Source of the DNA: Candidatus Heimdallarchaeota archaeon
Lineage (GTDB): Archaea > Asgardarchaeota > Heimdallarchaeia > Heimdallarchaeales > Heimdallarchaeaceae
Assembly (NCBI GenBank): GCA_019057375.1
Contig: DXJF01000094.1
Span: 1-59,501, forward strand
Direction of reading: 5' to 3'
DNA: 59,501 nucleotides
The position numbers were made by a program, and so were the translations under genes. Under the pieces are notes generated by a model. It saw only the letters and a program-made list of their open reading frames with translations. It had not been told where the DNA came from and searched no databases. Shown one piece after another: positions 4,636 to 36,104 of the stretch; positions within the stretch are counted from its first letter, which is position 1, and each line of letters begins with the position of its first letter.

Positions 4636-5250
4636 ATGACAATTGATTTCAGAACTCTCCCGATCATTATACTGGCAGCTGGAGATTCTCAGCGAATGGG
4701 TATTCCAAAAGGACTTCTAGATTATCATGGAAAACCCTTTCTTAGTTATCAAATTGAGAGTCTGTTTGAAATAGGTTTTACTGATATTATAGTTGTTTCA
4801 GGAAAAGATACTACACTCTATCAAGAAAATATACCTGAGCTCAAAAAAACAACTATTATAGTGAACCCCCAACCTGAAAAGGGACCTTTTTCTTCGATAC
4901 AAAGTGGACTTTCAGGATTAGGTGATAAACATCAATCAGGTGTATTCATCTTACCTATTGATGTTCCCTGTCCAAGTAAAGAAGTTTGGGACCAATTAGC
5001 TGGAGAATTAAGTTCTTCTAATGCTAATGTATCTATTCCTGAATTCAACGGAAAAAGAGGTCATCCTGTTTTACTCTCTGATGAATTCAAAAAATATCTC
5101 CAGACTTGTAGTTCAGATTCACGTCTTGATTTTGAGATTCGCAAACAAAAAGAACTACAAAAAGCAAAGATTATATCTGTTAATGACAAAAATATCACAC
5201 TTAACCTCAACACACTTGAGGAATGGGAAGCATTTAAGGTGAAAAAATGA
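4636..5250 (+). CDS. mocA: Molybdenum cofactor cytidylyltransferase (MocA/YgfJ-like nucleotidyltransferase)
   Basis: ILAAGDSQRMGIPK nucleotidyltransferase motif, PIDVP and GHPVL; stop overlaps the start of the Mo-hydroxylase gene (ATGA). Confidence 0.85.
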   Translation: MTIDFRTLPIIILAAGDSQRMGIPKGLLDYHGKPFLSYQIESLFEIGFTDIIVVSGKDTTLYQENIPELKKTTIIVNPQPEKGPFSSIQSGLSGLGDKHQSGVFILPIDVPCPSKEVWDQLAGELSSSNANVSIPEFNGKRGHPVLLSDEFKKYLQTCSSDSRLDFEIRKQKELQKAKIISVNDKNITLNLNTLEEWEAFKVKK

Positions 5251-7880
5251 ATGTTACATTTACTCTCAATGGAAAAAAAGTAACTGCTGAGTACGAAGAA
5301 GGTATGAGTGTTCTTGATGTTCTCAGAGAAGTCTGTTTGATAAAAAGTTGTAAAGACGGATGTTCTGGACAAGGTTTTTGTGGTGCTTGTACTGTTCTAA
5401 TAAACGGTAAAGCTATGGTTTCTTGTAGACAAAAACCTGCATCTATTGAGGGAAAAGAAATTGTCACTGTTGAAGGTTTAGATTTAGTAGAGCAAGAAAT
5501 ACTATCAAAATCTTTAGTCAAAGAAGGAGCTGTTCAATGTGGTTTTTGCACTCCTGGGCTTTTGATAAGAATCAAGGGTTTCCTTGATCAACACCCAACT
5601 TCAACCAGAGAACAGAAAGCCAAAGCTATAACAGGAAATCTTTGTCGTTGTACAGGGTACCAGCGAATATTAGATGCAATGGAAACAGCTGAAGAAAATT
5701 GGCAAACAAAGAATCAGGATATTTCAGGTCCTCCTCGTAGAAACAAATTTTTTGGAGAACAATATGGTTTTGAGCGGGAATTTCAACCAAAAGAACATGG
5801 GGTTGGTAGCAGTACTCAGCGCTACCGCGGTGTAGATATGGCTCTAGGTAAGAAACCCTACATAGCTGATTTGGAAGTAGAGAATATGCTTCATGGAGCT
5901 TTGCTACTGAGTGAACATCCACGTGCAAAGGTCATAAATATAGATATTTCTCAAGCAAAATCAGCTTGTGGAGTTGTAAGGGTAATTACTGCAAAAGATG
6001 TTCCAGGTAAAAGAATGATAGGGTATATAATTCCTGATTGGCCAATATTTGTTGCAGAAGGCGAATCAACAAAATACGTAGGGGATGTTTTAGCTATGGT
6101 TGTTGCTGATTCAATGATTCATGCTAGGGCTGCTCTAGACAAAATAAAAGTTAAATATGAGGTTCTTGAACCAATAGACAATCCTGAGAAAGCATTGGCT
6201 AAAGATTCTATGAAAATACATGAGAAAGGAAATCTTTTAGGACATACTTTCTTTGGAAGAGGGAATGTTAATGAAGCATTAAACAATTCCAAGTATGTAA
6301 TAAAACAACAATTCAAAACACAACGCATTGAACATGCTTTTATGGAGGTTGAAAGCAGTCTTTCAATTCCAACAGCAACTGGTGTTCATGTATACAGTCA
6401 AGGACAAGGTGTACATGAAGATCAACGACAGATTGCTGAAGTATTAGGATTGAAGAATGAAGAAGTCATAGTAGAACTTGTCACCAACGGAGGAGCTTTT
6501 GGAGGAAAAGAAGATCTTTCATGCCAAGCTCAGACAGCTGTAGCTTCATTTTTACTAAAGAAACCTGTTAAGACTGTACTTACACGAGAACAATCCCTAC
6601 TTATTCATCCTAAACGTCATCCTATGATAATGAATTATGAAGTAGGTGCTAATGAAAATGGAAAACTTACAGCTGTTAGATTAAGACTCATCGCAGACTC
6701 TGGAGCTTATGCTTCAGTCGGAGCAAAAGTTGCTGAACGTGCAGCAGGACATTGTTGTGGCCCCTATTATGTTCCACATGTAGATATTGATGCGAAATCT
6801 GTATACACTAACAACCCTCCTTGTGGGGCGATGCGTGGATTTGGTGTTAATCAAACTTCTTTTGCAATTGAATCTTGCTTGAATATGATTGTTGAAAAAA
6901 TGAGGGGAGATGGAATTGAAATTGATGATTATGATATAAGAGAACGGAATATTCTCAGAGAAGGTCAAAGGTTTGCAACAGGACAAAAGATGACAAAAAC
7001 TGTTATTGGAATGCAAAAATGTCTTGATGCAGTAAAAGATGTTTATAAAAATTCAAAGGTTCCAACAGGTATAGCTTGTGGTATAAAAAATACAGGTATT
7101 GGCAATGGTCTTGAAGACACTGGAAGGGTGCTCATTAAAGTCCTTGAAGATGAACAGCTCGATATATTAACAGGTTTTACTGAAATGGGTCAAGGATTGT
7201 TTACAGTAATTACTCAAGTTGTTACTGAACTAACAGATATACCACCTGCACAAATGAATGTTAAGTCTATTAGTTATCCAACAACAAAATGTGGCATGAC
7301 TACTGCCTCAAGAGGTACTGCGCTGGATACTATGGCAGCTAAGATTGCTACAGAAAAACTTGCTTTAGCTCTTCAATCAAAGTCATTAAAAGATTTAACA
7401 GGTGAAGAATTCCATGGAGAATACATTACTAACTTCACTGTCAAACCAGGAACAAAAGTAGATAATCCTGTAACACACTTAGCATTTAGTTATGCAGTAC
7501 AAATGGCTTTTCTTGACGAAAAAGGTAATCTTAAGAAAATAATAGCAGCACATGATGTTGGAAAAGCAATTAACCCTATGGCATGCGCTGGTCAGTTTGA
7601 AGGGGGAGTTCATATGGGACTTGGACATACTCTCTCGGAAAGTTTTCCGACAACTAGAGGAGTACCAGATTCTTTGAGAATGAAGGATCTCCAAATAGTC
7701 AAAGCTAAAGATACTCCTGAGGTTGAAGTTATTTTAATTGAAGTGCCAGAAGAAATTGGAGGATTTGGTGCAAAAGGTGTTGGAGAGATAGGACTTGTTC
7801 CAACAGCTGGAGCAGTTGCAGGTGCTCTACACAAGTTAGATGGTAAAACTCGTTTTGAACTTCCAATAGCACGAAAATAA
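5247..7880 (+). CDS. Fused [2Fe-2S]/molybdopterin hydroxylase, selenium-dependent xanthine dehydrogenase (XdhAC/DOPDH) type
   Basis: CKDGCSGQGFCGAC, QCGFCTPG and CRCTGY Fe-S motifs fused to a Moco domain (GGAFGGKE, AMRGFG, EMGQG, KGVGEIG); no FAD domain. Selenium dependence is inferred from architecture only. Confidence 0.85.
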   Translation: MNVTFTLNGKKVTAEYEEGMSVLDVLREVCLIKSCKDGCSGQGFCGACTVLINGKAMVSCRQKPASIEGKEIVTVEGLDLVEQEILSKSLVKEGAVQCGFCTPGLLIRIKGFLDQHPTSTREQKAKAITGNLCRCTGYQRILDAMETAEENWQTKNQDISGPPRRNKFFGEQYGFEREFQPKEHGVGSSTQRYRGVDMALGKKPYIADLEVENMLHGALLLSEHPRAKVINIDISQAKSACGVVRVITAKDVPGKRMIGYIIPDWPIFVAEGESTKYVGDVLAMVVADSMIHARAALDKIKVKYEVLEPIDNPEKALAKDSMKIHEKGNLLGHTFFGRGNVNEALNNSKYVIKQQFKTQRIEHAFMEVESSLSIPTATGVHVYSQGQGVHEDQRQIAEVLGLKNEEVIVELVTNGGAFGGKEDLSCQAQTAVASFLLKKPVKTVLTREQSLLIHPKRHPMIMNYEVGANENGKLTAVRLRLIADSGAYASVGAKVAERAAGHCCGPYYVPHVDIDAKSVYTNNPPCGAMRGFGVNQTSFAIESCLNMIVEKMRGDGIEIDDYDIRERNILREGQRFATGQKMTKTVIGMQKCLDAVKDVYKNSKVPTGIACGIKNTGIGNGLEDTGRVLIKVLEDEQLDILTGFTEMGQGLFTVITQVVTELTDIPPAQMNVKSISYPTTKCGMTTASRGTALDTMAAKIATEKLALALQSKSLKDLTGEEFHGEYITNFTVKPGTKVDNPVTHLAFSYAVQMAFLDEKGNLKKIIAAHDVGKAINPMACAGQFEGGVHMGLGHTLSESFPTTRGVPDSLRMKDLQIVKAKDTPEVEVILIEVPEEIGGFGAKGVGEIGLVPTAGAVAGALHKLDGKTRFELPIARK

Positions 7881-7940
7881 TTGAAGATAATAAAAATGAA
7901 AGAAGAAATAATAAAAAAAGTTGAGAATAAAATCTTCAAT
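7880..7940. terminator. Intergenic element between convergent genes: 9-bp inverted repeat around an A-rich (T-rich on minus) tract
   Basis: attgaagat (7880-7888) is the reverse complement of atcttcaat (7932-7940). Confidence 0.4.
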
Positions 7941-7948
7941 GATAATTT

Positions 7949-8914
7949 TTAAGGAACAATTCTGGTTCCTGTTTCACCCTTTAAAGCCCTACCAATGTTT
8001 TCAGGACTAGTGATTAAAGCTTCTTTACCACCTTGTTCTAAAAATCCAACAATAGCTTTGATTTTTGGTTCCATAGATCCTTTTGCAAAATGAGTTCCTT
8101 CCTCTAGATACTTCTTTGCTTCAGCAACGGTAAGCTGATCCAAATCTATTTGATTAGGTTTACCGAAATTCAGGGCAACTTTTTCAACAGCGGTTGAAAT
8201 TAAAAGCATGTCTGCTTTTATTTTATTTGCTAGGAATGCAGATGCAAAATCTTTGTCAATTACTGCTGCAGTTCCCTTTACTCCTTGATCTGTCTCAATA
8301 ACTGGTATTCCTCCTCCACCTACAGTAATTGTGATTGTACCGGAATCGATTAGTGTTTTGATGGCTTCCAATTCCATAATTTCTACAGGTAATGGAGAAG
8401 GCACTACACGACGCCAACCTCGACCAGCATCTTCAACTACATTCCAACCTAATTCTTCTTTCCTTCGTTCCGCCTCTTCCCCTTCCATGAATGTACCAAT
8501 AGGTTTAGCAGGTGTCTGGAAAGCAGGATCATTTGAATCTACACGGACTTGTGTAATCACTGTCGTCACTGGTTTATCAATTCCTCTTTTTTTAAGCTCA
8601 TTTTGGATATTCTGCTGTAGGGAATAACCGATAGCGCCTTGACTGTCAGCACCGCAAACATCTAGGGGTAGTTCATGCATACCTTCCACCTTATGGGCAA
8701 TTTCACTTCGTCGTAAAATGAATCCAACCTGGGGTCCATTGCCATGTCCTATTGCAATATCCCAGCCAGCTTCAATCATATCTACTAGGTGAATTGCAGT
8801 TTCATGAGCAGCTTCATATTGATTTTGTACAGTTTGATGCTGCTTAGATTTGATGAGTGAGTTGCCTCCAATCGCAACAACCGCTACTTTTTTCTGTTCT
8901 GACATTCGTATCAC
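7949..8914 (-). CDS. arcC: Carbamate kinase (YqeA/ArcC); ATG at 8905 is the likely start
   Basis: VAIGGNSL, HGNGPQVG, KPIG, RRVVPSP, GGGGIPV, VIDKD and GSMEPK motifs. Confidence 0.97.
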   Translation of the reverse strand: MIRMSEQKKVAVVAIGGNSLIKSKQHQTVQNQYEAAHETAIHLVDMIEAGWDIAIGHGNGPQVGFILRRSEIAHKVEGMHELPLDVCGADSQGAIGYSLQQNIQNELKKRGIDKPVTTVITQVRVDSNDPAFQTPAKPIGTFMEGEEAERRKEELGWNVVEDAGRGWRRVVPSPLPVEIMELEAIKTLIDSGTITITVGGGGIPVIETDQGVKGTAAVIDKDFASAFLANKIKADMLLISTAVEKVALNFGKPNQIDLDQLTVAEAKKYLEEGTHFAKGSMEPKIKAIVGFLEQGGKEALITSPENIGRALKGETGTRIVP

Positions 8915-8938
8915 ATTCCTTATTTCATGTAGTTTAAA

Positions 8939-9335
8939 TTAATCACTAATATTTTTAGTGATTGTGATATATTTCGTTTTCTGATTAAGTGCATTAGATA
9001 TCAAATCTCCTATATCCTTTAATTCTTGATCCGAAAGCATTTCTTTTTTCTGAAAATCCTTAATCATTGATTATTACCTCCAAAATGTATCTTGATCAAA
9101 TTCTCTCTTCCAAATATGTTAATAGCATCTGCTTAAACATTTTTCCATGATACTGATCCTTCAATCTGTCTCCAATATATTGTTTAACAGCAATTCCAAT
9201 ATATTTTGTTCTATTATCTGTTTTTGGTGGTTCCCACGCAATAGCATATATATCTTCGCTATCTCCAAATCCTTCTTTCTCAGTTACTTCGTACCAATCA
9301 AAGGAACCTCTCCAGATAATTGTAAATTTCTTCAT
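8939..9335 (-). pseudogene. Fragmented GIY-YIG-like nuclease (79-aa ORF 9096-9335 plus 42-aa ORF 8939-9067)
   Basis: DIYAI-x11-KYIGIA-x5-DRL...H fits the GIY-YIG pattern. An alternative frame (ADAINIFGRENLIKIHFG) and a downstream mini-ORF (MIKDFQKKEMLSDQELKDI...) look like its continuation. Confidence 0.45.
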
Positions 9336-9704
9336 ACATTTGATTTTTTTTAATTTTCTTAAGATGTTGTAGCACCCTTTGAGTTTACAAATTATTTACA
9401 ATTGTATCAAGCCATGGTTTCTTTGAGTCTCGCAGGGTTTCTTAAATTATAATCGGAAACATATATGATGTTGCTAGATTTATAAAGGATGATTGTCATA
9501 CTAATATAGTAAAAAATTTATTACCAACAATCAAAATAAGTGATTAACTTATTAGGTTGAATGTATAATCTATAACCTGGACAATGTTATTAGATTAAAA
9601 TTCATCTCCCTATGGGAGTAACTGATTTGGACTGTAGTGGTTTTTTTTTACCAAATCGAAAACCAATCTTGCTTTTAAAAATAGTAAGGGAGGTGAACAA
9701 CAAA

Positions 9705-9857
9705 ATGAATAAAGTAAATAGGTCAAATGATGATAGATCTAACAGTATGAATTCTAATAATGCTGCATATCAAGCATCTATGAATAACAGATCTGATCAA
9801 CTAAATCCAAATAACGAGGAAAATCAGTCTTCAGAGGAAGCAGATGAAGAAGAATAA
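9705..9857 (+). CDS. Small Asn/Ser/acidic-rich protein (50 aa) with an internal NRS...NN repeat
   Basis: Strong SD agggaggtga at 9687-9696 before ATG 9705; MNKVNRSNDDRSNSMNSNNAAYQASMNNRSDQLNPNNEENQSSEEADEEE; followed by a T-tract. Confidence 0.65.
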   Translation: MNKVNRSNDDRSNSMNSNNAAYQASMNNRSDQLNPNNEENQSSEEADEEE

Positions 9858-10009
9858 AGCTATAGAAAGGATTTTTCTTTTTTTTCTTCTTTTACCTCAT
9901 ATGGTCAGGAAGGAAACTATCAAATGCCTGAACAAGACTTCTCTCTCTAAATTCTCTGATATGCTATATTAGATCATTTTCCTGTCTTGAAAGAAGTGTG
10001 TTCATTCTT

Positions 10010-10192
10010 TTAGAGAAGAGTGAATTTCTCTCTTTCTCTACAGAAAGCATTAGGACAAATAATGGGTTTAGAGGGAGGGTTCTCTTTATGAGAAAAGGTA
10101 ATCGTATCACCACAGTTCCCACAAGAATAAGAAGAGACAAACTTTGAAGATTGTTCTTCTTGTGAATCTATGAGGAGTTTCTCGTAGGACAT
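10010..10192 (-). CDS. Small zinc-finger-like protein (60 aa)
   Basis: From internal ATG 10192: CGNC...CPNAFC, a four-Cys pattern. Confidence 0.4.
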   Translation of the reverse strand: MSYEKLLIDSQEEQSSKFVSSYSCGNCGDTITFSHKENPPSKPIICPNAFCREREKFTLL

Positions 10193-10311
10193 GAGACAAA
10201 GAATACGATGTATTTGAGAGATAAAAGCATTTCTTGATTTTTGGTGTTTTATAATGTCGTTCAAGACAAAGTGCTGAAAGTAAAGTGTTCCAAGTAAGGA
10301 AATGATAAACC

Positions 10312-10509
10312 ATGGCGAAAATACACCATTACAGAGAAGGAAAGCTAGTAGTGGAAGAGGAGAAAGAAGAAGAGTATTCAGAATACAAACTAGACACAAT
10401 ATACATAGAATCGTTCAAGACGTTTTTTGCAACAATAGAAGAACAAACGACAGAATCAAGATGGATACCAAAGAAAGTGGTGTCGAAAGAATTAAAAATA
10501 ACGAAATAG
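10312..10509 (+). CDS. Hypothetical small acidic protein
   Basis: 65-aa ORF with purine-rich coding-like composition; no recognisable motif. Confidence 0.3.
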   Translation: MAKIHHYREGKLVVEEEKEEEYSEYKLDTIYIESFKTFFATIEEQTTESRWIPKKVVSKELKITK

Positions 10510-10650
10510 TACATCAAAGCATTGAAAGAGGGGAGATTAGAATGAGGGAAAAAAGAAAAGAAAACAAGTAAAATTAACAAATTATATGACAATAAACTTA
10601 TAACCAGATTAAAGATAAATTCAAAAAAGTTCTTTACTAGGTTCTAATTT

Positions 10651-10870
10651 ATGCGTAGTAGTGTTGGATAATAAACTTCAATCCATCTTCATACAAGATG
10701 GTAAAAGAAGAATGAAGAATGGTTCCTTGTTGTTGGATGGAAGGCCACAAAAAAAGAAAACAAAAATTATTATCGCAACTTTGGAATTGAAATAGCTTTC
10801 AGGTTAGTCAAGACTCTCCATATCTCTACCCCCTCTCGATACTCAGCAGTCCGTTTTTTATATCCCTACC
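10651..10870 (+). pseudogene. IS4-superfamily (ISH3-like) transposase remnant
   Basis: Own translation with in-frame stops: MRSSVG**TSIHLHTRW*KKNEEWFLVVGWKATKKENKNYYRNFGIEIAFRLVKTLHISTPSRYSAVRFLY. Y-x6-E-x6-K matches YREK spacing, with the Arg lost. Confidence 0.6.
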
Positions 10871-11156
10871 TCCGTTCTCATCGTTTTATAGAATGCTATG
10901 CTCCATTTATCTATCCTCTACCAATTCTTTACTACTTCCCTAATCTTCATTACCTTCTGTAAAACAGGTTCAATCACCTTTTATCAAATCTGTATATGTT
11001 TTCGGCATCTTCTAGAAGAAGGTGATACAGGTAGCACTCATTGAGGAAGTACTAAGTTGTAGATAAAGTTTAAATATGTAAATAAACCTCGTATAGGCAG
11101 TATACTGTTTGTAGAAAACAAAATTGAAAAACAGTATAGACGGAGGAAATTAAACT

Positions 11157-12290
11157 ATGAAAAAAAAACAATATAGATTAGCTTTTTTTGTTTTTTTTAC
11201 AATTGTATTTCTTAGTAGCACAATTCTCATTAAAGAAGTAAGAGCTACATCAACCACTATCCAGAAACCTACTAATGGTCAACAATTTAACAGTCTCTTA
11301 AATGGTGATTATATCACTTTCAAATTCATCATCGTTGGTTCATATCAATCATATAAAACATATATTGATGGACAGTTAGATTACTCTCTCCATCATGTAG
11401 GAGTAAATATTCAATATGATGCAAGGAACTTTATAGATAAGTACGGTAGAGGATTACATACTTTTACTGTTTCAGTTTCAGTCAGTGGGGGTCCTAGTCC
11501 TTTTAGCATAACTACTCAAAGTGTTGTTATGGATAGTGTATCATTCACAGTAGATCCACCCATGTGTCATTTCGTTGGTTTTGGATTTGATTTCGATGAT
11601 GAATATTCTTGGCAATATAGATGGAGAAGTAATATAGAACCATTTAGAGATATGCTTCTAAGCGATAGGGCGAAATACATCCCTGGTTATTTCGCTACTC
11701 ATTATGATTGGGACGATGATGATGTAATTAGTATATTAGATACTTTAGATACAAAAGAAAAACAAAAAGACATTGTAGTAGTTCTATTTTCCGCACATGG
11801 ACATGCTGTGCTTCCCCCACCAGATGCTGATGCGTGGACACATTCTCATACAACCACATGGTTTCATGAATTAGGGTGGACACCTTACTATAAGGGTGTT
11901 GCTGCTATCGAACTGAAAGGTTGGTTATTTGATTTAGAAACCGATAACTTAGTATATATTATGGATTGCTGCCATTCAGAAGGTTTTCTCTACGAAGGAC
12001 TAGATTTAACCAACAAAAAGCATGTGATGGTAGCTAGTGAGTGGGACGAATCTGCTTGGCATCAGCAAAAGAGTTATGATCCTAGTTGGTCACTAAGTGG
12101 TAGAATACTTTTTATGTCTAGTCCTTTTCTACGACATATGTGTATGGAGTTCTATTTTGATTGTTCTGATACAGACACAGCGTTTGATCATGCTTATAAT
12201 TGGATTATTACAAACCATCCAGAATGGGATCAACATCCAATGGATTTCAACGATTTGCAGACAGCGCTTTACTTATGTCACCCAACATAA
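11157..12290 (+). CDS. Secreted protein: N-terminal beta/Ig-like region plus clan CD (caspase/metacaspase-fold) peptidase domain
   Basis: Signal-peptide-like N-terminus; VVLFSAHG and YIMDCCHS His/Cys dyad motifs; SD ggagg upstream. Confidence 0.65.
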   Translation: MKKKQYRLAFFVFFTIVFLSSTILIKEVRATSTTIQKPTNGQQFNSLLNGDYITFKFIIVGSYQSYKTYIDGQLDYSLHHVGVNIQYDARNFIDKYGRGLHTFTVSVSVSGGPSPFSITTQSVVMDSVSFTVDPPMCHFVGFGFDFDDEYSWQYRWRSNIEPFRDMLLSDRAKYIPGYFATHYDWDDDDVISILDTLDTKEKQKDIVVVLFSAHGHAVLPPPDADAWTHSHTTTWFHELGWTPYYKGVAAIELKGWLFDLETDNLVYIMDCCHSEGFLYEGLDLTNKKHVMVASEWDESAWHQQKSYDPSWSLSGRILFMSSPFLRHMCMEFYFDCSDTDTAFDHAYNWIITNHPEWDQHPMDFNDLQTALYLCHPT

Positions 12291-12306
12291 ATAAGAAGGT
12301 TGAATA

Positions 12307-13356: not shown

Positions 13357-13426
13357 ATTTTTAGTATTATTCACCTTTTATTTTTTTTAATACGGGCATG
13401 TGCCAAAACTTGTTGGAGTGAAATAG

Positions 13427-13822
13427 AACTCACCTAAGAGGAAAAGTCACCCTAGTGGAAGCGGAAACAAATCCTTACGCAGTCGAGTGCATAAGTGGTG
13501 TTATCGTCTCTTTATCACTAAACTGAAGCACAAACTTACTCGTTATGGATTTGAATCCCATCGAGTGGTAGCAATTGGAGAAAGTTGGACCTCGAAACGA
13601 TGTTCAAGGTGTAATTCACTTAACACCACCCGTACAGGACAAGGACAGTTTAATTGCCATGATTGCAACTACGAACTGGATGCTGATATGAACGGGGCAA
13701 AGAACATAGGTAAAAGGTTGATCCAATATGCTTTGCAGCCAAAGCATGGTTATACCAAGATTCGAGATATACTAACTGATGAGTCCATCCGACATCACTG
13801 TTCAAGTGTCTCCAGCCTTTAG
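13427..13822 (+). pseudogene. tnpB: 5'-truncated IS200/IS605/IS607-type TnpB (RuvC C-terminal half and Zn ribbon)
   Basis: HKWCYRLFITKL, ESWTSKRCSRC, FNCHDC and DADMNGAKNIG; the frame is closed by a TAG at 13424-13426, so the RuvC-I/II region is missing. Confidence 0.85.
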
Positions 13823-14175: not shown

Positions 14176-14342
14176 ATATCCGTGCTAATTGACGCTCTTT
14201 CTCCTTCCTTCCTTTTTTTCAATAGTGTTTTTCTACTTAGCAGATTTGTTGTAGATGTTACAGAAACGGTTGAAAATGGAATAATTGTATAGATATTGTA
14301 TTTTATAGATTAATAAAAAATATTTGAGGAGATTTGTATCCC

Positions 14343-18480: not shown

Positions 18481-18481
18481 T

Positions 18482-20148: not shown

Positions 20149-20202
20149 TTATTACACTGATATGTAGGTGACTTAAACTATTATAAAACTTGTGAGAAAT
20201 GG

Positions 20203-22709: not shown

Positions 22710-22711
22710 AT

Positions 22712-23461: not shown

Positions 23462-23471
23462 AATCTATTAC

Positions 23472-24869: not shown

Positions 24870-24910
24870 CTATGCTTTTTATATAGATAAAAGAATGTTG
24901 GCTCCCTATT

Positions 24911-27998: not shown

Positions 27999-29072
27999 AT
28001 GGATCTTTCAGTTAATTTACTAGGCTTGCATTTCGAAAATCCTCTGGGGCCAGCAGCAGGACCTATTGTTGAAGGTCTTGAAAATATGCAGTTTTTCAAT
28101 AATAATTTGTGTGGTTATAATGTCGCAAAGACAATTTCAGTTGAAGGAGCAATAGTTCCGAAACCTTGTATTGCAGGAACAACTACAACTATTTACAATT
28201 GTGAACTATGGTCTGAACTGCACTCAGATGAATGGATAAATGAAATTCTTCCTACAATTCACAAAGAGAAGAAAAAACCAATAGTCATAAGTGCAGGTTA
28301 TCAAGAAGAAGATTTTAGATATCTAATTCCAAAACTTGATCCTTATGCAGATATGTTTGAGATTTCAACTCACTATGTGAAAGAAAATCTTGCTGGTATA
28401 GTCAAGAGTATTCGAGAAAATACTGACAAACCGGTTTTTATGAAACTCAGTCCTCATGTAGATGATTTTCTAGGATTTGTTAAAACAGTGATTGATGCTG
28501 GAGCAACAGGGATTGTTGCCATAAATTCGTTGGGACCAGGAACTGCGATAGATTTGAAAAACCGCTCAGTTCTTCTAGCAGAGCAAATATGGATGAGTGG
28601 TCCTTCTATCAAGCCTATTGCAATTCATAGAATTTATAACATTAGGAAAGCGTATCCAGATATTCCAATTATCGGTGTAGGAGGAATAGGAAAGGCTGAA
28701 GATGTTATTGAATTCATACTTGCAGGAGCAGATTTAGTACAAATGCTCTCCTCAGCTCTGATCAAAGGAAGACGATTATATGATAAAATAATAAAGGACC
28801 TCCCAAAAGCACTTGAAAAGTATGGTTTTTCCTCAATTGAAGAGATTAGGGAAGTTAGAAGGAGCACTGTTTTCAAAGAAGTAGATACAGCTGTAGATAA
28901 CTATCCATCCTTTAACGAAAGATGTAACATGTGTATGCTATGTGTTCGTATCTGTCCAGCTGGAGCTTTAACTGCAGAAGAAACCATAATCGTAGATAAA
29001 GAGAAATGTATCCACTGTGGTTTATGTGAATCTCGATGTCCACAGGATGCAATATATGGAGTGCTTAGATGA
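27999..29072 (+). CDS. Dihydroorotate/dihydropyrimidine-dehydrogenase-like FMN enzyme with C-terminal 2x[4Fe-4S] (PreA-like)
   Basis: NPLGPAAGP, KPVFMKLSP, AINS, MSGPSIKP and IIGVGGI; CNMCMLCVRICP and CIHCGLCESRCP ferredoxin motifs. Confidence 0.9.
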   Translation: MDLSVNLLGLHFENPLGPAAGPIVEGLENMQFFNNNLCGYNVAKTISVEGAIVPKPCIAGTTTTIYNCELWSELHSDEWINEILPTIHKEKKKPIVISAGYQEEDFRYLIPKLDPYADMFEISTHYVKENLAGIVKSIRENTDKPVFMKLSPHVDDFLGFVKTVIDAGATGIVAINSLGPGTAIDLKNRSVLLAEQIWMSGPSIKPIAIHRIYNIRKAYPDIPIIGVGGIGKAEDVIEFILAGADLVQMLSSALIKGRRLYDKIIKDLPKALEKYGFSSIEEIREVRRSTVFKEVDTAVDNYPSFNERCNMCMLCVRICPAGALTAEETIIVDKEKCIHCGLCESRCPQDAIYGVLR

Positions 29073-29190
29073 GCAATTACATATAGAGATGTATTAGTTG
29101 TAAGAAAGAATTTGATTCTAAACCCAATCTCTATTGCTGTAAATATTAATGCTATAATGTAAGTGTGCCTTGAAGAATATAAAATTATGA
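29069..29190 (+). pseudogene. Degenerate duplicate of the 5' end of the thrC-like gene at 30290
   Basis: 61/72 nt identical to 30290-30361 by manual codon alignment; contains in-frame stops; its ATG overlaps the preA-like stop (ATGA). Confidence 0.85.
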
Positions 29191-29227: not shown

Positions 29228-30160
29228 TCATTTTTCTTTCTTTGCAGTCCAGAAAAGATGATTCATGTAACTTTCTATTTCTAATAATCCTTTCTTTTTC
29301 ATTCTATCAAGCATTATTTTGATTTCTTCCTTGTTTAGGTCAGGGAAAAGAGTCATTATTTGGTCTTCCCTTAAAGGATGTCTTTTTGTTATACTCAATA
29401 TCTGATCTTCTGGTGATGCATCTCTATCCACGCTTTCAATAAGTAGGTTCTCAAAATGAGCTATACTTTCAGCGTTGAGATTTCTTTGAGCTTCGGCTAA
29501 GACTTCATTAGTTGGGATTTCTACCCAAGATTCAGCGGGAGGACGGATTGGCACATTAATGAATGTTTTGTCGACTTTCAACTCATCAAGAATCTCTTTT
29601 ATTGCTAATGTAGTCTCCTTTGAATCATTTTTATCTTTAACTAGCATTACTTCCATCCAAATTTGATTAGAAAATTCTTCTCGAAATTTCCTCATTCCCT
29701 CTATAATTGATTCTAGTTTCAGATCTTTATGAGGGCGATTTATTATTCGAAACATTCTTTCTTCCACTGCATCTAATGTTGGTAAAACCACATCTGATAA
29801 GAGTAACTCCTTTCTCACTTCTTGATCGTAGAGAAGAGCTCCGTTAGTAATAACAGCAATAGGAATATTTGTGAATTTCTTAATTTCTTTTATCAGTTCC
29901 CCTAAACCCAAGTAAAGAGTGGGTTCACCGTCTCCAACAATTGTGATATAATCTATTACGTGTTCTTTCTCAAGTGCTTTTTTAACTTCTTGAGCAATAT
30001 TTTGTACTGGAAAATACATCTTTCTATCGTTTGTTAAAGCAGATGTTTTTCCTAATTGACAATAAATACAAGAATAATTACATGTTTTAGGAGGAATTGG
30101 ACTAATACCGAGCGATCTTCCTAATCTTCGTGAAGGTACAGGTCCAAATACATATTTCAT
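29228..30160 (-). CDS. Radical SAM protein (COG0731-like)
   Basis: FGPVPSRRLGRSLG, CNYSCIYC, GDGEPTL and ITNG motifs. Confidence 0.92.
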   Translation of the reverse strand: MKYVFGPVPSRRLGRSLGISPIPPKTCNYSCIYCQLGKTSALTNDRKMYFPVQNIAQEVKKALEKEHVIDYITIVGDGEPTLYLGLGELIKEIKKFTNIPIAVITNGALLYDQEVRKELLLSDVVLPTLDAVEERMFRIINRPHKDLKLESIIEGMRKFREEFSNQIWMEVMLVKDKNDSKETTLAIKEILDELKVDKTFINVPIRPPAESWVEIPTNEVLAEAQRNLNAESIAHFENLLIESVDRDASPEDQILSITKRHPLREDQIMTLFPDLNKEEIKIMLDRMKKKGLLEIESYMNHLFWTAKKEK

Positions 30161-30289
30161 TTCGATTAGTTATACTCTTTTAAACTATTCAAGTTTTTGG
30201 AAAATACACCAAGAAAAGGAGAATCGGATTTAATTCAACGAAAATTCTTAAGAAATGAACACTTCTTATTAGCATAACGGTGTTCTTGA

Positions 30290-31501
30290 ATGAGCAATCA
30301 CATATTGAAATGTATAACTTGTAAGAAAGAATTTGATCCAAAACCCGGTCTCTATTATTGTGAAGATTGTGGTCAGATTATGGGTACCTTGGAAGTAATC
30401 TACGATTATGAGTCCATAAAAGAAAAATCAGTTGTAAAGGAAAGAAATTTCGATATGAAAGCTTCCATGTATCAATTTAGTTTTCTTCTACCAACTGAAT
30501 CAAAAAGTATGTTCGATGAATATGTAGGAGGTACTCCATTGTATAAATTCGACCTTCTTGGAATCAAGGATGTTCTTGTAAAATACGATGGTTCCAACCC
30601 CTCTAGTTCATACAAAGACAGAGCAAGTTCTATAGCTATTAATAGAGCTCTTGATGAAGGAAATGATACTATCTTCTGTGCTTCAACTGGTAATGCAGCA
30701 TCATCTCTTGCAATGCTAAATGCTCATACTAAAATGAAAACATACATCTTTGTTCCATCAGCTATTCCCGATGGGAAACGAGCTCAACTTGAAATATCGG
30801 GGGCAGAAGTTATGGCAGTGGAAGGAACTTATGATGAAGTTTATGATTTGTCTCTGGAATTAGGTTTAAAGAAAGGGTGGTACTGTAGAAGTGCTGCAAT
30901 TAATCCATATTTGTTGGAAGGAAAAAAGACCGGAGCATTTGAAATAATAATTCAAAACGATTTCAAAATACCTGATTATGTTCTTATTGGTGTAGGAGAC
31001 GGAACAGTAATTAGCTCTCTTTACAAAGGATTTTGGGAATTCAAAGAAATTGGTCTGACAGATAAGATTCCCCGTATTATTGGTGTTCAAGCAGAAGGTA
31101 TACCTACGATAAAGAAAGTATTTGATAAAGGGAAACCATATACACCTATAACAATCAAAGGTAAAACTATCGCTGATAGTATCTCTGTTGGCAAGCCACG
31201 TGATGTCATTAAAGCTTGTACCTATATTGAAGCAGGCAATGGTTATTTCATCACTCTTACAGATGAAGAAATTCTAGATGCCATAGTAGAATTAGGTAAA
31301 GAAACTGGCTTATTCGCAGAACCAGCTGGAGTAGTACCTTATGGTGGGCTGAAAAAACTTATTTATGAAGAAAAGATAACCGAATCAGATACCGTTTGTC
31401 TTGTCATCACTGGTAATGGTCTTAAAGATGTTAGTGCAGTTGAAGGTTTGATAAGCACAGAATCTTTATCAATTATGGATTTAGAAAAAAGGTTTGAATG
31501 A
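30290..31501 (+). CDS. Threonine-synthase-like fold-type II PLP enzyme
   Basis: CITC/CEDC N-terminal Zn motif, NPSSSYKDR (PLP Lys), STGNAASSLA, GVGDG, EPAG and TGNGLKD. Confidence 0.88.
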   Translation: MSNHILKCITCKKEFDPKPGLYYCEDCGQIMGTLEVIYDYESIKEKSVVKERNFDMKASMYQFSFLLPTESKSMFDEYVGGTPLYKFDLLGIKDVLVKYDGSNPSSSYKDRASSIAINRALDEGNDTIFCASTGNAASSLAMLNAHTKMKTYIFVPSAIPDGKRAQLEISGAEVMAVEGTYDEVYDLSLELGLKKGWYCRSAAINPYLLEGKKTGAFEIIIQNDFKIPDYVLIGVGDGTVISSLYKGFWEFKEIGLTDKIPRIIGVQAEGIPTIKKVFDKGKPYTPITIKGKTIADSISVGKPRDVIKACTYIEAGNGYFITLTDEEILDAIVELGKETGLFAEPAGVVPYGGLKKLIYEEKITESDTVCLVITGNGLKDVSAVEGLISTESLSIMDLEKRFE

Positions 31502-32871
31502 TGAAATTTATTCTTAACCAAGAAATAGTAAAAATAGATGAACCATTAGGTAATTCTACACTTGATTTCTTACGAAATAAAGGTATGAAAGGAGTTAAGG
31601 AAGCCTGTCATGAAGGGGAGTGTGGAGTGTGTATGGTGCTTCTTGGAGAGTTAAAGGATAAAAATGTTGAATATAAAGCTGTTACATCTTGTATTCTCCC
31701 TCTAGGTGAAATTGTTGGCAAACATGTTGTAACAATTGAAGGCTTAAATCAAGAAGACTTGAGTCCCATTCAACAAGCATTAATAGATGAAGGAGCAAGT
31801 CAGTGTGGCTTTTGTACACCAGGATTCGTCGTTAGTTTGACTGGTTTTTTCCTAAATGAAAAACTTGAGAAAAAAGATATTCTAACATCTATTGAAGGGA
31901 ATTTATGTCGATGTGGAGCGTATGCTTCAATTATAAGATCTGCAGAAAAGTTAGCAAAGGAAATCTCTGTTGAGGATGAAAAATCAAAAGAAAGAATCCA
32001 AAAACTCATTGAAGAGCGTATATTGCCAGCTTATTTTTCAGATATACCAAATCAGCTAGATAAACTAAAAGAATCGAGTAGTACAAAACTGCTAAAAGAA
32101 GGGACTATTGTTGCAGGAGCAACAGATTTACTAGTTCAGAAGGAAAGTCTATCTGATCCAATCTTTATATCAGAAAAAGAGCTTTCTGGAATACATTTAG
32201 ATGGAAATTACATCTATATTGGTGCAACGACATCAATGGAAGATATACGTATTTCAGAAGAGCTAAATGCTCTTTTCAATACTAAACAAGACATATCTCT
32301 AGTTTCAGCTTTTCCTATTAGATTGCAAGCTACTTTAGGAGGAAATCTTGTTAATGCTTCTCCTATTGGAGATCTTATTATCTATTTTCTTGCTCTAGAT
32401 GCAGAAATAAGTCTTAAGAATGAAAGAGATGGGAGAATTATCAAACTTAGAGATTTCTATAAAGATTATAAAATAATGGATATTGAGAAGGGGGAGATAA
32501 TTGAGTGGCTTAGAATCAATAATAAAAAGCGGTTATTTAACTTTGAAAAAGTAGCGAGAAGGAAATATATGGACATAGCTAGTGTCAACAGCGCTATTTC
32601 ATTTGATTTAAATGATGATAAAATACAAAACGCTCATTTATCTGCTGGAGGAGTAGCTCCTGTTCCTAAGTATCTGGAAAAAACTTCTAATTATCTTGGG
32701 AACAAGAAGATCTCGGAAGAAATTATAAAAGAAGCTGTAAAAATTGCTGATTCTGAGGTTAGTCCAATAGATGATGTTCGAGGATCAGCTCGTTACAAGA
32801 GATTACTCCTTAGACAGTTAATTTATGCTCATTTCTTAACACTATTTCCTGATTTGGAGGTATCACTATGA
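31498..32871 (+). CDS. xdhA: Xanthine dehydrogenase small subunit (2Fe-2S plus FAD)
   Basis: ACHEGECGVC, QCGFCTPG, LCRCGAY, AGATDL, TLGGNLVNASPIGD and DDVRGSARY motifs. Confidence 0.93.
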   Translation: MMKFILNQEIVKIDEPLGNSTLDFLRNKGMKGVKEACHEGECGVCMVLLGELKDKNVEYKAVTSCILPLGEIVGKHVVTIEGLNQEDLSPIQQALIDEGASQCGFCTPGFVVSLTGFFLNEKLEKKDILTSIEGNLCRCGAYASIIRSAEKLAKEISVEDEKSKERIQKLIEERILPAYFSDIPNQLDKLKESSSTKLLKEGTIVAGATDLLVQKESLSDPIFISEKELSGIHLDGNYIYIGATTSMEDIRISEELNALFNTKQDISLVSAFPIRLQATLGGNLVNASPIGDLIIYFLALDAEISLKNERDGRIIKLRDFYKDYKIMDIEKGEIIEWLRINNKKRLFNFEKVARRKYMDIASVNSAISFDLNDDKIQNAHLSAGGVAPVPKYLEKTSNYLGNKKISEEIIKEAVKIADSEVSPIDDVRGSARYKRLLLRQLIYAHFLTLFPDLEVSL

Positions 32872-35108
32872 AGGATCTAATTTCTCCCCACACTCGTGGT
32901 GAATCGATCTATATTGATGATATACCTGAACCAGTTAATCTATTATATGCTGTTGTCTTTACATCAAATATACCACACGGAAAAATCATCTCCCTTGATA
33001 TAACGAAAGCGGAGAACAGTGAAGGTGTTTGTAAAGTTCTTATCGCCAAAGATATTCCAGGAGAAAATCAAATAGGACGTCTTATTCAGGATGAAGAACT
33101 CCTTGCAGAGAAAGAAGTTGATTTTATAGGGCAACCAATTGCAGTAGTTTTAGCTGAAACAAAAGAGCAAGCTAAACAAGCAATTAAGTTAATTAACATA
33201 GAATATGAACAACTTCCAGCTGTATTCGACTCTCGTGAAGCAGCAAGAAAAGGATTACTGATTTCTTCTTCACGCACCTTAACGATTGGAGATATTGAAT
33301 CAACTTGGGGAAAATGTGCAACAGTTATCGAAGGAATAGCTGAGTCAGGGGGTCAAGAACATGTATATCTTGAAACACAAGCTTCGCTAGTTATACCAGA
33401 TGAAAATGGCAGAATAATCATTTATTCTAGTACTCAAGCACCTACAACAGTTCAAAGTACAACCTCAAAAATTCTGGGGTGTGATATGAACTTAATTGAG
33501 GTTGATGTGAAACGACTAGGCGGAGCTTTTGGTGGAAAAGAAGACCAGGCTACACCATGGGCTGCTATTTGTGCACTCGGAGTTTACCATACAGATCGAC
33601 CAGTAAAGCTAGTTCTTACTAGACGTGAAGATATTATTATGACGGGTAAACGTCATCCCTATTCAACTGATTATAAGATAGGTTTAGATGAAGAAGGTAA
33701 AATACTTGCTTTTTCTGCTGAATTTTATCAAAATTCAGGAGCTGCTGCTGACCTTTCGACAGCTGTTCTTGGTCGAACTCTTTTTCATGCAACTAATGCT
33801 TATTATATTCCAAATGTCCGAGTGACCGGTTATCCGTGTAAAACGAATATTGTTCCTTTCACTGCTTTCAGGGGGTTTGGTGGTCCTCAAGGAATGTTTG
33901 TTATAGAGTGTGCTGTTGCACATGCTGCTGAAGTAATTGGTATTCCTTTGTCAGTTTTACAAGAGAAAAACTTGCTTCAGGAAGGAGATCAATTTCATTA
34001 CGGTCAACAAGTTGAGAATTGTAACGCAAAACGAAGTTTTACTCAAGTTGTTAAAGATACTAATTTTGAAAAAAGAAAACAGGAGATAGAAGATTTTAAT
34101 ACAAATAATCGATTTACAAAAAAAGGTATTTCCCTAATGCCTATCTGTTTTGGAATTTCATTCACTGCTTCTTTTCTTAATCAAGCTGGAGCACTTGTTA
34201 ATGTTTACAAGGATGGGAGTGTTAGTATAAGTACAGGCGCAATTGAAATGGGTCAAGGGGTTAACATTAAAATCAGACAAATCGCTGCAAAAACCCTCTC
34301 AATTAAACCTGAAAGGATTCGGATAGAAAGTACAAGTACTAGCAGAATTATTAACACTTCACCAACTGCTGCAAGTACTGGGACTGACCTTAATGGAAAA
34401 GCAGTAGAGATAGCATGCAACAAAATAATTGATCGATTGAAAAATTCTGCATCAGAAAAATTAGGCTCAGATGCTGTTTCAATAGAAGATGAGTATGTTT
34501 ATCAAGACGGAAAACGAACTGAGATTTCTTGGAAAAAACTTGTCAATTTAGCTTATTTGAAAAGGGTTAATCTTTCCGCTCAAGCTTTTTATGCGACACC
34601 TAGACTTCATTTCGATTATGAAAAGGAGAAAGGAAGACCTTTTGCTTACCATGCTTATGGAACAGCTGTTACAGAAGTAACAGTTGATTGCTTAAGAGGG
34701 ACATACACTATTGACAAAGTTCAAATGGTACACGATGCAGGAAAAAGTCTTAACTATCTTGTAGATTTAGGACAGGCTGAAGGAGGATTAATTCAAGGAA
34801 TCGGCTGGTTAACTGTAGAAGAATTAGTCTTTGACAAAGGAAAAAACTTTACAGATTCCTTATCAACATATAAAATACCTAACCTTTATTTCACTCCTAA
34901 GATTGAAGTTACTTTTCTAGAAGATGCTGAAAATCCAGAAGCTGTTTTGAAATCAAAAGCTATCGGAGAACCCCCCTTCATGTATGGAATAGGTACTTAC
35001 TTAGCTTTAAAAAATGCAGCTCAGGCTTTCAGAAAAGATAAAGAATGGAAATATTCAGCACCTCTTACACCTGAGAAGTTACTTTTGTTCTTATATGGTA
35101 TGAATTGA
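32868..35108 (+). CDS. xdhB: Xanthine dehydrogenase molybdopterin-binding subunit
   Basis: GGAFGGKED, GRTLFH, TAFRGFGGPQG, IEMGQG, TAASTGTDLNG and KAIGEPP motifs. Confidence 0.93.
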   Translation: MKDLISPHTRGESIYIDDIPEPVNLLYAVVFTSNIPHGKIISLDITKAENSEGVCKVLIAKDIPGENQIGRLIQDEELLAEKEVDFIGQPIAVVLAETKEQAKQAIKLINIEYEQLPAVFDSREAARKGLLISSSRTLTIGDIESTWGKCATVIEGIAESGGQEHVYLETQASLVIPDENGRIIIYSSTQAPTTVQSTTSKILGCDMNLIEVDVKRLGGAFGGKEDQATPWAAICALGVYHTDRPVKLVLTRREDIIMTGKRHPYSTDYKIGLDEEGKILAFSAEFYQNSGAAADLSTAVLGRTLFHATNAYYIPNVRVTGYPCKTNIVPFTAFRGFGGPQGMFVIECAVAHAAEVIGIPLSVLQEKNLLQEGDQFHYGQQVENCNAKRSFTQVVKDTNFEKRKQEIEDFNTNNRFTKKGISLMPICFGISFTASFLNQAGALVNVYKDGSVSISTGAIEMGQGVNIKIRQIAAKTLSIKPERIRIESTSTSRIINTSPTAASTGTDLNGKAVEIACNKIIDRLKNSASEKLGSDAVSIEDEYVYQDGKRTEISWKKLVNLAYLKRVNLSAQAFYATPRLHFDYEKEKGRPFAYHAYGTAVTEVTVDCLRGTYTIDKVQMVHDAGKSLNYLVDLGQAEGGLIQGIGWLTVEELVFDKGKNFTDSLSTYKIPNLYFTPKIEVTFLEDAENPEAVLKSKAIGEPPFMYGIGTYLALKNAAQAFRKDKEWKYSAPLTPEKLLLFLYGMN

Positions 35109-35138
35109 AAGAAAAATAAAATCAAGAGAGATGCTAGT

Positions 35139-36104
35139 ATGAACGAAGAACATTTCTGGAAAAAAATTTTGAAAGAAATTGAGATGGGTAATCCTTCTGT
35201 AGTAGTTACCATAATAAATCGAGAAGGATCTGCACCAAATATTCCTGGTGCAAAAATGTTTGTAAACCTTAACAGTATTGGAGGTACTGTGGGAGGAGGA
35301 GTGTCTGAACATCGTTTGCTGGAACTTGCTAAGAACCTTCTTGATGAAAAGAATTTTTCAGTTGAAACAGTACATATGGAGCATAACGAAACAGCAGGCG
35401 ATGACCGATCAGGAATGATTTGCTCAGGTTCACAAACTTTTGCCCTTGTTCCATTAAGTAGAAATGATAAGCTTACTGTTGAAATGATAATTGAAGCTTA
35501 TACTGAAGCAAAACCTGGTGTTCTTTCAATTTCTAATAAAGGTATAAGTGCAGATTTTGGTGATATTTTAACTCATGATAAAGTTTATTCTGGAGATAAA
35601 CATTCTTGGTCATATCAGGAAAATATAGGTGTTCAAGACAAGCTTTTCATAATTGGAGGAGGACATGTGTCTCTCGCATTATCAAGTATAATAGCGACTC
35701 TTGGTTTTCATATTACAGTATTAGATGATAGAAAAGAAGTACCAACTATGACTGATAATACCAGCGCTCATGTGAAAAAAGTTATTTCTTACAAAGACAT
35801 TTCTACTATCATTCCTGAGGGAGACAACATTTATGTTGCAATTATGACCTTCGGACATAAATCAGATGAGCTAGTATTAGAAAGCATTATTTCAAAAAAG
35901 TGTAAATACATCGGAATGATGGCAAGTGCAGCTAAAAAGCAACAGATTTTTTCAAATCTTGAAGAAAAAGGAATTTCAAAGGATTCCCTAAAGAAAATTC
36001 ACTCTCCAATTGGAATAAGTATCAATAGCAACACTCCAGAGGAAATAGCCATTAGCATAACAGCTGAGCTAATTCAAGTTAAGAATTCAAATACGTTTAA
36101 CTAA
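35139..36104 (+). CDS. xdhC: XdhC/CoxI Moco-insertion chaperone
   Basis: GSAPNIPGAKM, GTVGGG, ICSG, IIGGGHVS, YIGMM and SPIGISINSNTPEEIAISI motifs. Confidence 0.92.
   Translation: MNEEHFWKKILKEIEMGNPSVVVTIINREGSAPNIPGAKMFVNLNSIGGTVGGGVSEHRLLELAKNLLDEKNFSVETVHMEHNETAGDDRSGMICSGSQTFALVPLSRNDKLTVEMIIEAYTEAKPGVLSISNKGISADFGDILTHDKVYSGDKHSWSYQENIGVQDKLFIIGGGHVSLALSSIIATLGFHITVLDDRKEVPTMTDNTSAHVKKVISYKDISTIIPEGDNIYVAIMTFGHKSDELVLESIISKKCKYIGMMASAAKKQQIFSNLEEKGISKDSLKKIHSPIGISINSNTPEEIAISITAELIQVKNSNTFN

Follow-up and report, generated by a model that had tools for sequence, protein, structure and literature searches.

Reductive degradation of urate by way of 2,8-dioxopurine was elucidated in 2025, and is reported to be confined to anaerobic bacteria (PMC12990295). 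In Escherichia coli and Clostridium sporogenes the pathway uses XdhD or XdhAC, YgfK, SsnA, HyuA, YgeW, YqeA, YgeY and YgeX (Liu et al. 2025, 10.1101/2025.04.24.650524; Li et al. 2025, PMC12507026). The pathway papers and commentary treat it as bacterial, and their Pfam-coloured gene neighbourhoods lump ThrC-like proteins with YgeX and the two transcarbamylases that concern us here with YgeW. We describe a gene cluster of Candidatus Heimdallarchaeota archaeon (assembly GCA_019057375.1), at 4636-36104 of the 59,501-nt contig DXJF01000094.1; the whole contig is termed the window. We regard it as moderately probable that this cluster encodes a Heimdallarchaeal version of reductive urate and purine degradation in which two transcarbamylases take part.

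Other described systems share parts of the cluster. The Clostridium difficile variant of the pathway, with a PydA-like UacX and with UacY, has UacX in the place of YgfK, as described and assayed by Li et al. 2025 (PMC12507026); a hydrolase replaces YgeW and carbamate kinase (CK), so that no ATP is conserved, whereas the window has two transcarbamylases and a CK. A ‘dehydrogenase X1’ family beside hyuA, ygeW, ygeY, ssnA and xdh had already been noticed by Barba et al. 2013 (PMC4016543). The same authors described pseudo-ATCases, relatives of aspartate transcarbamylase (ATCase), in three subgroups: subgroup 1 is the Rubrobacter ureidoglycine carbamoyltransferase, which phosphorolyses allantoate and is encoded beside CK; subgroup 2 lies in Nocardioides beside a ygeW homologue, xdhABC and hyuA; and subgroup 3 is found in marine bacteria. 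That study came before the reductive pathway was described and assigned them no part in it. The arginine deiminase pathway, with its catabolic ornithine transcarbamylase (OTC) and CK, has the same chemistry of ureido phosphorolysis to carbamoyl phosphate and thence to substrate-level ATP; it differs in that the short transcarbamylase of the window (CT_B) lacks the OTC ornithine motifs DxxxSMG and HCLP, and in that two different transcarbamylases would act in series here.

The window is contig C44 of a 3.47-Mb metagenome-assembled genome (MAG) that is 89% complete. Genes were taken from a listing of open reading frames (ORFs) and from Pfam and NCBIfam scans of the window proteins, with the curated NCBIfam cut-offs as thresholds. 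The features of the cluster are as follows, where Moco is molybdenum cofactor, FAD and FMN are flavin adenine dinucleotide and flavin mononucleotide, DHODH is dihydroorotate dehydrogenase and PLP is pyridoxal phosphate.

4636-5250, plus strand: MocA-like molybdenum-cofactor cytidylyltransferase (PF12804, 1.5e-33; TIGR03310, 112 bits, below cut-off)
5247-7880, plus strand: fused 2Fe-2S and Moco hydroxylase of the EF2570/TIGR03311 type, without FAD domain, termed SeXDH (TIGR03311, 874 bits, cut-off 830)
7949-8914, minus strand: carbamate kinase, YqeA-like (TIGR00746, 384 bits, cut-off 358; NF009007, 410 bits, cut-off 266)
8915-14342, no strand: 5.4-kb insertion with two ORFs that match no family and a C-terminal piece of TnpB (CK and CT_B genes adjacent in relative G023)
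14343-15323, minus strand: CT_B, short YgeW-like/OTC-like transcarbamylase of 326 aa (OTC, 253 bits; YgeW, 203-210 bits; under all NCBIfam cut-offs)
15333-16286, minus strand: ATCase paralogue, a ‘pseudo-ATCase’ (TIGR00670, 261 bits, cut-off 237)
16509-17042, minus strand: flavin reductase-like protein (PF01613, 4.7e-25)
17149-18480, plus strand: hydantoinase/dihydropyrimidinase-like amidohydrolase, termed Hyd, candidate for the HyuA role (TIGR02033, 304 bits, below the cut-off of 393)
18482-26362: unrelated genes, ∼8 kb, interrupting the cluster
26682-27998, plus strand: SsnA-like aminohydrolase, the pathway marker (NF005540 as best family, 345 bits, below the cut-off of 444)
27999-29072, plus strand: UacX-type DHODH/PreA/PydA-like FMN barrel with two 4Fe-4S motifs (PF01180 and Fer4)
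29228-30160, minus strand: inserted radical-SAM gene, between the UacX-type and ThrC-like genes
30290-31501, plus strand: ThrC-like fold-type-II PLP enzyme (TIGR00260, 190 bits, cut-off 167)
31498-36104, plus strand: XdhA (2Fe-2S and FAD), XdhB (Moco) and the maturation factor XdhC (TIGR02963, 314 bits; TIGR02965, 814 bits, cut-off 849; XdhC domains)

All genes named in an initial annotation of this DNA, made from the sequence alone, are present where it had placed them, and the partial translational coupling that it reported is seen in 4-nt overlaps at three junctions (MocA/SeXDH, ThrC-like/XdhA and XdhA/XdhB) and in the start of the UacX-type gene 1 nt after the ssnA stop codon. Its 32-kb set is real as a set of genes but is not one operon, being broken by three interruptions (8915-14342, 18482-26362 and 29228-30160).

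The cluster resembles the E. coli and C. sporogenes pathway in an SsnA-like protein, the fused FeS-Moco hydroxylase with MocA, the hydantoinase, the YgeW-like protein with CK, a separate xanthine dehydrogenase, and gene logic. Unlike in those bacteria, YgfK, YgeY, YgeX, YgfM, SelD, YqeB and YqeC were not found in the window genome; its proteins are 24-52% identical to the E. coli enzymes, and its host is a marine-sediment archaeon, not a gut bacterium. With the C. difficile variant the cluster shares an SsnA-adjacent FMN and 4Fe-4S reductase in the YgfK place and a molybdenum enzyme without an FAD subunit, which suggests ferredoxin as reductant.

We infer every substrate of the proposed pathway, and its ATP yield, from the observed gene content, synteny, phyletic and residue patterns. 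XdhAB would oxidize hypoxanthine and xanthine to urate, from which SeXDH would remove the 6-oxo group. UacX and SsnA would dearomatise and open the six-membered pyrimidine ring, and Hyd would open the five-membered hydantoin to give 2,3-diureidopropionate. In this genus CT_B would phosphorolyse one ureido group of this compound; the ATCase paralogue, with a rebuilt second-substrate pocket, would phosphorolyse the other, in place of the YgeY hydrolase. CK would convert both carbamoyl phosphates to ATP, which would raise the maximum yield per urate from 1 to 2 ATP, and the ThrC-like PLP enzyme would turn diaminopropionate into pyruvate and ammonia, in place of YgeX.

Relatives of the window SsnA with 66-93% identity come from ∼25 Heimdallarchaeota MAGs; the closed genomes of Ca. 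Heimdallarchaeum endolithica and Ca. H. aukensis encode such relatives too. Among bacteria the nearest SsnAs, those of Thermosipho, a Bacillota MAG and Clostridium thermopalmarium, reach ∼50% identity. The gene order SsnA-UacX-ThrC-like-XdhA-XdhB-XdhC is syntenic in ∼20 Heimdallarchaeota loci, and of the 31 genomes in one Heimdallarchaeial family ∼26 have the pathway cluster, the closed ones among them. In the closed Ca. Heimdallarchaeum genomes 18 kb hold the order MocA-SeXDH-YgeY-CT-(CysK-like)-Hyd-SsnA-UacX-ThrC-like-XdhABC (CT, transcarbamylase); their YgeY reaches 630 bits (cut-off 321). The Thermosipho cluster reads YgeY-CT-Hyd-SsnA-x-UacX; a 425-aa ORF that belongs to no NCBIfam family lies between its ssnA and uacX (L044, 11289-12566). 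The proposal of a 2,8-dioxopurine-type purine/urate cluster in a Heimdallarchaeon is thus well supported, by gene content and by synteny over ∼20 loci. Evidence against bacterial contamination comes from a Ras-family GTPase downstream, from a GC content that is uniformly low and from the closed genomes.

The upstream steps can be compared enzyme by enzyme. The window SsnA is 30% identical to that of E. coli and 48-50% identical to those of the Thermosipho, Bacillota and Clostridium clusters; its adjacency to UacX recurs in C. thermopalmarium (L046, 53% identity) and in ∼20 Heimdallarchaeota loci. The UacX-type reductase would take the YgfK role and is probably driven by ferredoxin. A profile search found no YgfK over cut-off in the whole 3.47-Mb MAG, and tblastn with the E. 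coli proteins agrees. One 1121-aa ORF (C158) was considered as a YgfK and taken to be an unrelated protein of glutamate-synthase type, its match being to the GltD-like part (267 bits, cut-off 835). The proposal that a PreA-like enzyme stands in for YgfK is supported as to role but is not new, being the published UacX variant. Hyd, 32% identical to E. coli HyuA, adjoins SsnA in four loci (L039-L041 and L044), and we propose that it opens ureidomethyl-hydantoin, the HyuA role. SeXDH aligns over its full length with E. coli XdhD at 24% identity, about as distant as the C. difficile ‘XdhD’ is from the E. coli protein (25.6%), and its pairing with MocA is conserved in L040 and L080. By elimination, we propose it as the urate 6-dehydroxylase (DOPDH role).

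This hydroxylase had been labelled ‘Se-type’. No SelD was found over cut-off in the window MAG or in five relatives (G006, G007, G002, G023 and G028), two of the genomes being closed, and all six carry a hydroxylase of the TIGR03311 type. In the window MAG E. coli YqeB matches XdhC only and YqeC has no match. Selenium dependence is doubtful because no SelD was found; with YqeB and YqeC likewise not found, the label holds for SeXDH as a statement of homology only.

At the head of the scheme, we propose that XdhABC is a canonical xanthine dehydrogenase, which would feed hypoxanthine and xanthine into urate. A preprint by Imachi et al. (10.1101/2025.02.26.640444) reads Heimdallarchaeial Xdh differently, as the producer of urate that serves as an antioxidant for aerotolerance, a proposal made for cultured relatives among the Heimdallarchaeia; the neighbouring genes would then be unrelated salvage functions. 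Two peroxiredoxin genes just downstream (37290-38251) fit that account. Yet xdhABC is co-oriented with the ThrC-like gene and overlaps it, behind ssnA-uacX, in ∼20 species, and a full downstream set of urate-consuming genes is present, so that we consider the antioxidant explanation of this cluster highly improbable.

We turn to the transcarbamylases. Identity to E. coli YgeW is 35% for CT_B and 28% for the ArgF of the same genome; CT_B keeps the STRTR and HPxQ motifs. It fails the YgeW profiles (TIGR03316/NF005538; 203-210 bits against 453-500) and has 326 aa against ∼390 aa. Together with CT_A, the transcarbamylase that accompanies YgeY in related genomes, it has the K(S/N)W motif of YgeW at the place of DxWxSMG in OTC, and both group with YgeW, not with ArgF/ArgI. 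The label ‘YgeW’ is thus right as to motif and grouping, but CT_B is a short relative that stays under the YgeW cut-offs. CK shares 52% identity with YqeA of E. coli.

The ATCase paralogue keeps the carbamoyl-phosphate site (STRTR, Arg105, His134/Gln137), Arg167 for the alpha-carboxylate, and the Leu267-Pro-Arg region. The loop of Lys84 is changed (…GKKGE… to …AGDFYME…), the TR229xQ231 motif is lost and HPLP has become HSLP; these changes are identical in five orthologues, down to 65% identity. The paralogue thus lacks the PyrB ligands Lys84, Arg229 and Gln231 and has no pyrI nearby; it nonetheless passes TIGR00670. Loss of the cationic ligands Lys84 and Arg229, together with a gain of acidic residues, would suit an amine or ureido side chain rather than a carboxylate; on that reading the alpha-ureido group of 3-amino-2-ureidopropionate may be the one that is cleaved.

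By the motifs in Table 1 of PMC4016543 the paralogue bears the pseudo-ATCase signature: STRT and HPTQ, H[ST]LP (here HSLP), loss of RxQ, a genuine ATCase elsewhere in the genome, and a purine/hydantoin context, with YgeW-like, CK, xdh and hydantoinase neighbours as in the published cases. The ‘VxP’ of subgroup 3 fits the window's …VQP… if shifted by two residues, in a comparison of motifs. The substrate of subgroup 1, allantoate, differs from the one proposed here. The genuine pyrBI lies on contig C57 (347 bits) and the genuine thrC on C116 (568 bits); since the housekeeping pyrB-pyrI, argF and thrC, all on other contigs, have much higher family scores, the ATCase-like, OTC-like and ThrC-like genes of the window are additional divergent paralogues, and the three substitutes of the initial annotation are thus extra copies.

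YgeY, absent from the window by the initial annotation, is not found over cut-off anywhere in its MAG either (best 143-146 bits, cut-off 321). The absence is not lineage-wide, though: among the 26 SsnA-positive genomes of family f1, eight, including the two closed ones of Ca. Heimdallarchaeum, encode a canonical YgeY within the cluster. In family f1, where CT_A and CT_B are 44-48% identical, YgeY with CT_A occurs in 8/26 genomes, the ATCase paralogue in 13/26 (with CT_B in 11 of these 13), neither in 5/26 and both in none. The two pairs occupy the same slot in different genomes, between SeXDH/CK and Hyd.

One genome of the same genus, G009, holds an intact YgeY-CT_A pair beside a decaying second pair (L078; G009:C107, 1885-8997). 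Its CT_B is a pseudogene, with an in-frame stop at codon 39 and STRTR changed to STHTR, and its ATCase paralogue is truncated after ∼100 aa. Of all the evidence for a shared function of the two pairs, this decay is the strongest. The pattern supports replacement of YgeY by the ATCase paralogue, probably from an ancestral family state of YgeY with CT_A. The proposal that the paralogue substitutes for YgeY agrees with the exclusion within f1, the shared slot and the decay in G009, but the swap concerns a gene pair and not a single gene.

The module itself is not confined to archaea. In G023 a single contiguous run of co-oriented genes encodes the block of ATCase paralogue, CT_B and CK, and three Anaerolineae genomes hold the same block, with identities of 77-79% (ATCase paralogue), 75-76% (CT_B) and 66-72% (CK). 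The Anaerolineae neighbours are a GntR regulator, an 8-oxoguanine deaminase (whose product is urate), an adenine deaminase, a Bmp/PnrA nucleoside ABC transporter and a ThrC-like gene. The order in one Anaerolineales genome (L091, G089:C80), all on one strand, is:

1193-14846: 8-oxoguanine deaminase, adenine deaminase, GntR, ATCase paralogue, CT_B, CK, Bmp/PnrA-type ABC transporter, ThrC-like

Because of its 66-79% identity to the Anaerolineae operon, the module is probably bacterial by origin. In a maximum-likelihood tree the ATCase paralogues of the genus make up a single clade with 100/100 support, which branches from among Chloroflexota sequences. The CK, CT_B and ATCase-paralogue genes have the highest GC of the window (0.40-0.415 against a window mean of 0.337), which is consistent with foreign origin. 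The ATCase-paralogue/CT_B(/CK) module was thus probably acquired from Anaerolineae, transfer being the simplest reading.

The module might instead serve some other ureido compound (allantoate, N-carbamoyl-aspartate from orotate, beta-ureidopropionate from uracil, or N-carbamoyl amino acids from other hydantoins) and be merely co-located with the urate genes, the second ureido group being removed by an unrecognised hydrolase such as the M20 deacylase on contig C141. This ArgE/DapE-type protein reaches 200 bits against a YgeY model; it is encoded beside TldD, with no pathway neighbours. Pseudo-ATCase subgroup 1 does phosphorolyse allantoate, UacX and Hyd are homologous to enzymes of pyrimidine pathways, the Anaerolineae that bear the module hold YgeY-family proteins elsewhere, and genome G049 has a CysK-like (PALP487)-amidohydrolase-ATCase paralogue arrangement without any SsnA match. 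In family f1, however, the module sits in the exact slot of YgeY and CT_A and decays where that pair is present; loss of the ligands for the beta-carboxylate of aspartate argues against carbamoyl-aspartate, and the Anaerolineae context is one of purines, not pyrimidines. We therefore judge a role outside urate degradation unlikely, and keep the assignment of the module to the two ureido groups of diureidopropionate.

Beyond f1, 24 genomes of families f5 and f7 (e.g. G049:C9:614214-634448; L081 and L082) have a YgeY-family protein over cut-off and no SsnA match. In G049 the ATCase paralogue of the arrangement above has 65% identity, and a YgeY-like gene lies 14 kb away. This pattern suggests another hydantoin or ureido-acid pathway.

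For the last step, the best match to YgeX in the window MAG scores 49 bits (cut-off 532), and YgeX was found in none of the 83 Heimdallarchaeia genomes, nor in five bacterial genomes whose clusters hold a ThrC-like gene. The ThrC-like gene is present in 25/26 SsnA-positive and 1/57 SsnA-negative Heimdallarchaeia genomes. Members of its family (43-62% identity) are also encoded within or next to urate or xdh clusters in Thermosipho, in one Bacillota and one Izemoplasmatales MAG, and in Anaerolineae. All 11 members of the ThrC-like clade retain the PLP lysine. The motif NPxR(L/V)EG holds an Arg that, from work on Thermus thermophilus ThrC, we take to be the binder of the substrate phosphate. It is changed to L, T or M in 11/11 clade members and is R in the genome's own ThrC and in that of Bacillus subtilis (6CGQ). 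These patterns support the ThrC-like protein as the putative equivalent of 2,3-diaminopropionate ammonia-lyase, the YgeX role. Its proposed substitution for YgeX is strengthened by the tracking of SsnA, the absence of YgeX in 83 genomes and the lost Arg, but is not specific to archaea.

A CysK-like PLP protein (PALP487, 486 aa, with an N-terminal extension) is encoded on the minus strand of contig C88 of the same MAG (G000:C88:19651-21108; L077, 7649-9109), where it adjoins a HemL-like class-III aminotransferase gene. This or another enzyme could handle diaminopropionate, while the ThrC-like protein eliminated urea or carbamate from 3-ureidoalanine, acted on a D-isomer only or served cofactor maturation of Xdh. 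The ThrC-like gene is the first of an xdh operon in Heimdallarchaeota and Thermosipho, which would fit such other roles. The CysK-like gene occurs in 58/83 Heimdallarchaeia, however, SsnA-negative families among them, and so is not pathway-specific; as a YgeX substitute it was ranked under the ThrC-like gene, which tracks SsnA almost perfectly. In Anaerolineae, moreover, the ThrC-like gene follows CK in the transcarbamylase operon, away from any xdh. Another enzyme in the YgeX role is therefore fairly unlikely, and the ThrC-like protein remains our candidate.

With these results, the checks proposed in the initial annotation bear it out in part: the genome-wide profile search found no ygfK, ygeY or ygeX over cut-off in the window MAG, tblastn with the E. 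coli proteins agreeing for all three, and across genomes the substitutes co-occur with ssnA. The ‘distinct architecture’ claimed for an Asgard archaeon stands as a variant with the ATCase paralogue and CT_B, but not as an archaeal speciality, the ThrC-like gene and the ATCase/CT/CK module being found in bacteria as well.

Several points weigh against the pathway as proposed. SsnA, Hyd, CT_B, XdhA and XdhB score under the NCBIfam equivalog cut-offs; SeXDH is only distantly related to E. coli XdhD, and its regiochemistry is not readable from sequence. The HMMER and MAFFT alignments of the ATCase paralogue differ around residues 229-231. Outside f1, G049 and the three Anaerolineae genomes hold both the ATCase paralogue and a YgeY-family protein, not in one operon, and universal exclusion of the two was accordingly rejected. 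Five SsnA-positive MAGs show neither pair, all genomes of the ATCase-paralogue type are incomplete MAGs (72-92%), and related genomes do not count as independent. The CysK-like gene belongs to the urate cluster in Ca. Heimdallarchaeum, Bacillota (L045), Izemoplasmatales (L088) and Anaerolineae (L092), where its product may be the lyase instead. No purine permease was found in the window, where 38.8-59.5 kb was checked.

The interruptions of the cluster have their own features. In the 5.4-kb insertion, ∼2.2 kb is without an ORF above 129 aa. Two ORFs, at 11157-12290 (377 aa) and 12307-13356 (349 aa), belong to no known family, the second having a 31% identical paralogue on contig C49; a TnpB C-terminal fragment of 111 aa follows at 13487-13822, PF07282 matching the fragment only. 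No clear terminal repeats of the insertion (8915-14342) were found, and tblastn found no remnants of YgeY or CT_A in the 8.9-14.3 kb gap. The CK and CT_B genes directly adjoin, without the insertion, in G023 (L084).

Further downstream, the inverted radical-SAM gene lies between the two copies of a 90-nt direct repeat (29058-29147 and 30279-30368, 81% identity); the first of these copies is a decayed duplication of the 5′ end of the ThrC-like gene, and the radical-SAM gene is found only in the closest relatives (L033, L038 and L083). In L038 and L083, as in the window, the flavin reductase gene adjoins those of Hyd and the ATCase paralogue; its product is a possible electron-transfer partner. 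Directly after xdhC lies the gene of the Ras-family small GTPase (36545-37105), followed by the two peroxiredoxin (AhpC/TSA) genes and a nitroreductase gene (37290-38816 in all).

A full-text search of the literature on urate and purine degradation in Asgard archaea and Heimdallarchaeia returned no earlier archaeal instance of the pathway, its sole relevant item being the preprint on Heimdallarchaeial Xdh and antioxidant urate. Within that literature the cluster, read as above, is the first archaeal instance of the reductive urate pathway, with a known family, the pseudo-ATCases, in a putative new role. More tentatively, we suggest that a selenium-independent pathway exists in Asgard archaea and marine Anaerolineae, in which two dedicated transcarbamylases recover both ureido groups by means of a module that can be exchanged horizontally for the YgeY one.

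The cluster would extend the reductive urate pathway to archaea and to marine sediment, where it seems to dispense with the selenium machinery present in every bacterial carrier examined to date. It also proposes roles for two orphan families, the pseudo-ATCases beside ygeW and the ‘threonine synthases’ beside xdh. The order in which the ureido groups are cleaved is unsettled, and the pair swap, with one genome caught in mid-replacement, leads to a hypothesis on it that can be tested; if the assignments are true, the swap would be a natural system to settle which ureido group goes first, a YgeW-like enzyme acting on one nitrogen and a pseudo-ATCase on the other. For the host, the cluster suggests that Heimdallarchaeial Xdh is catabolic, as against the antioxidant reading used in the aerotolerance argument on the origin of eukaryotes. 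If the proposed scheme is true, the substrate-level ATP per purine would be doubled, and purine fermentation would be a genuine source of energy for Heimdallarchaeaceae in anoxic sediment.

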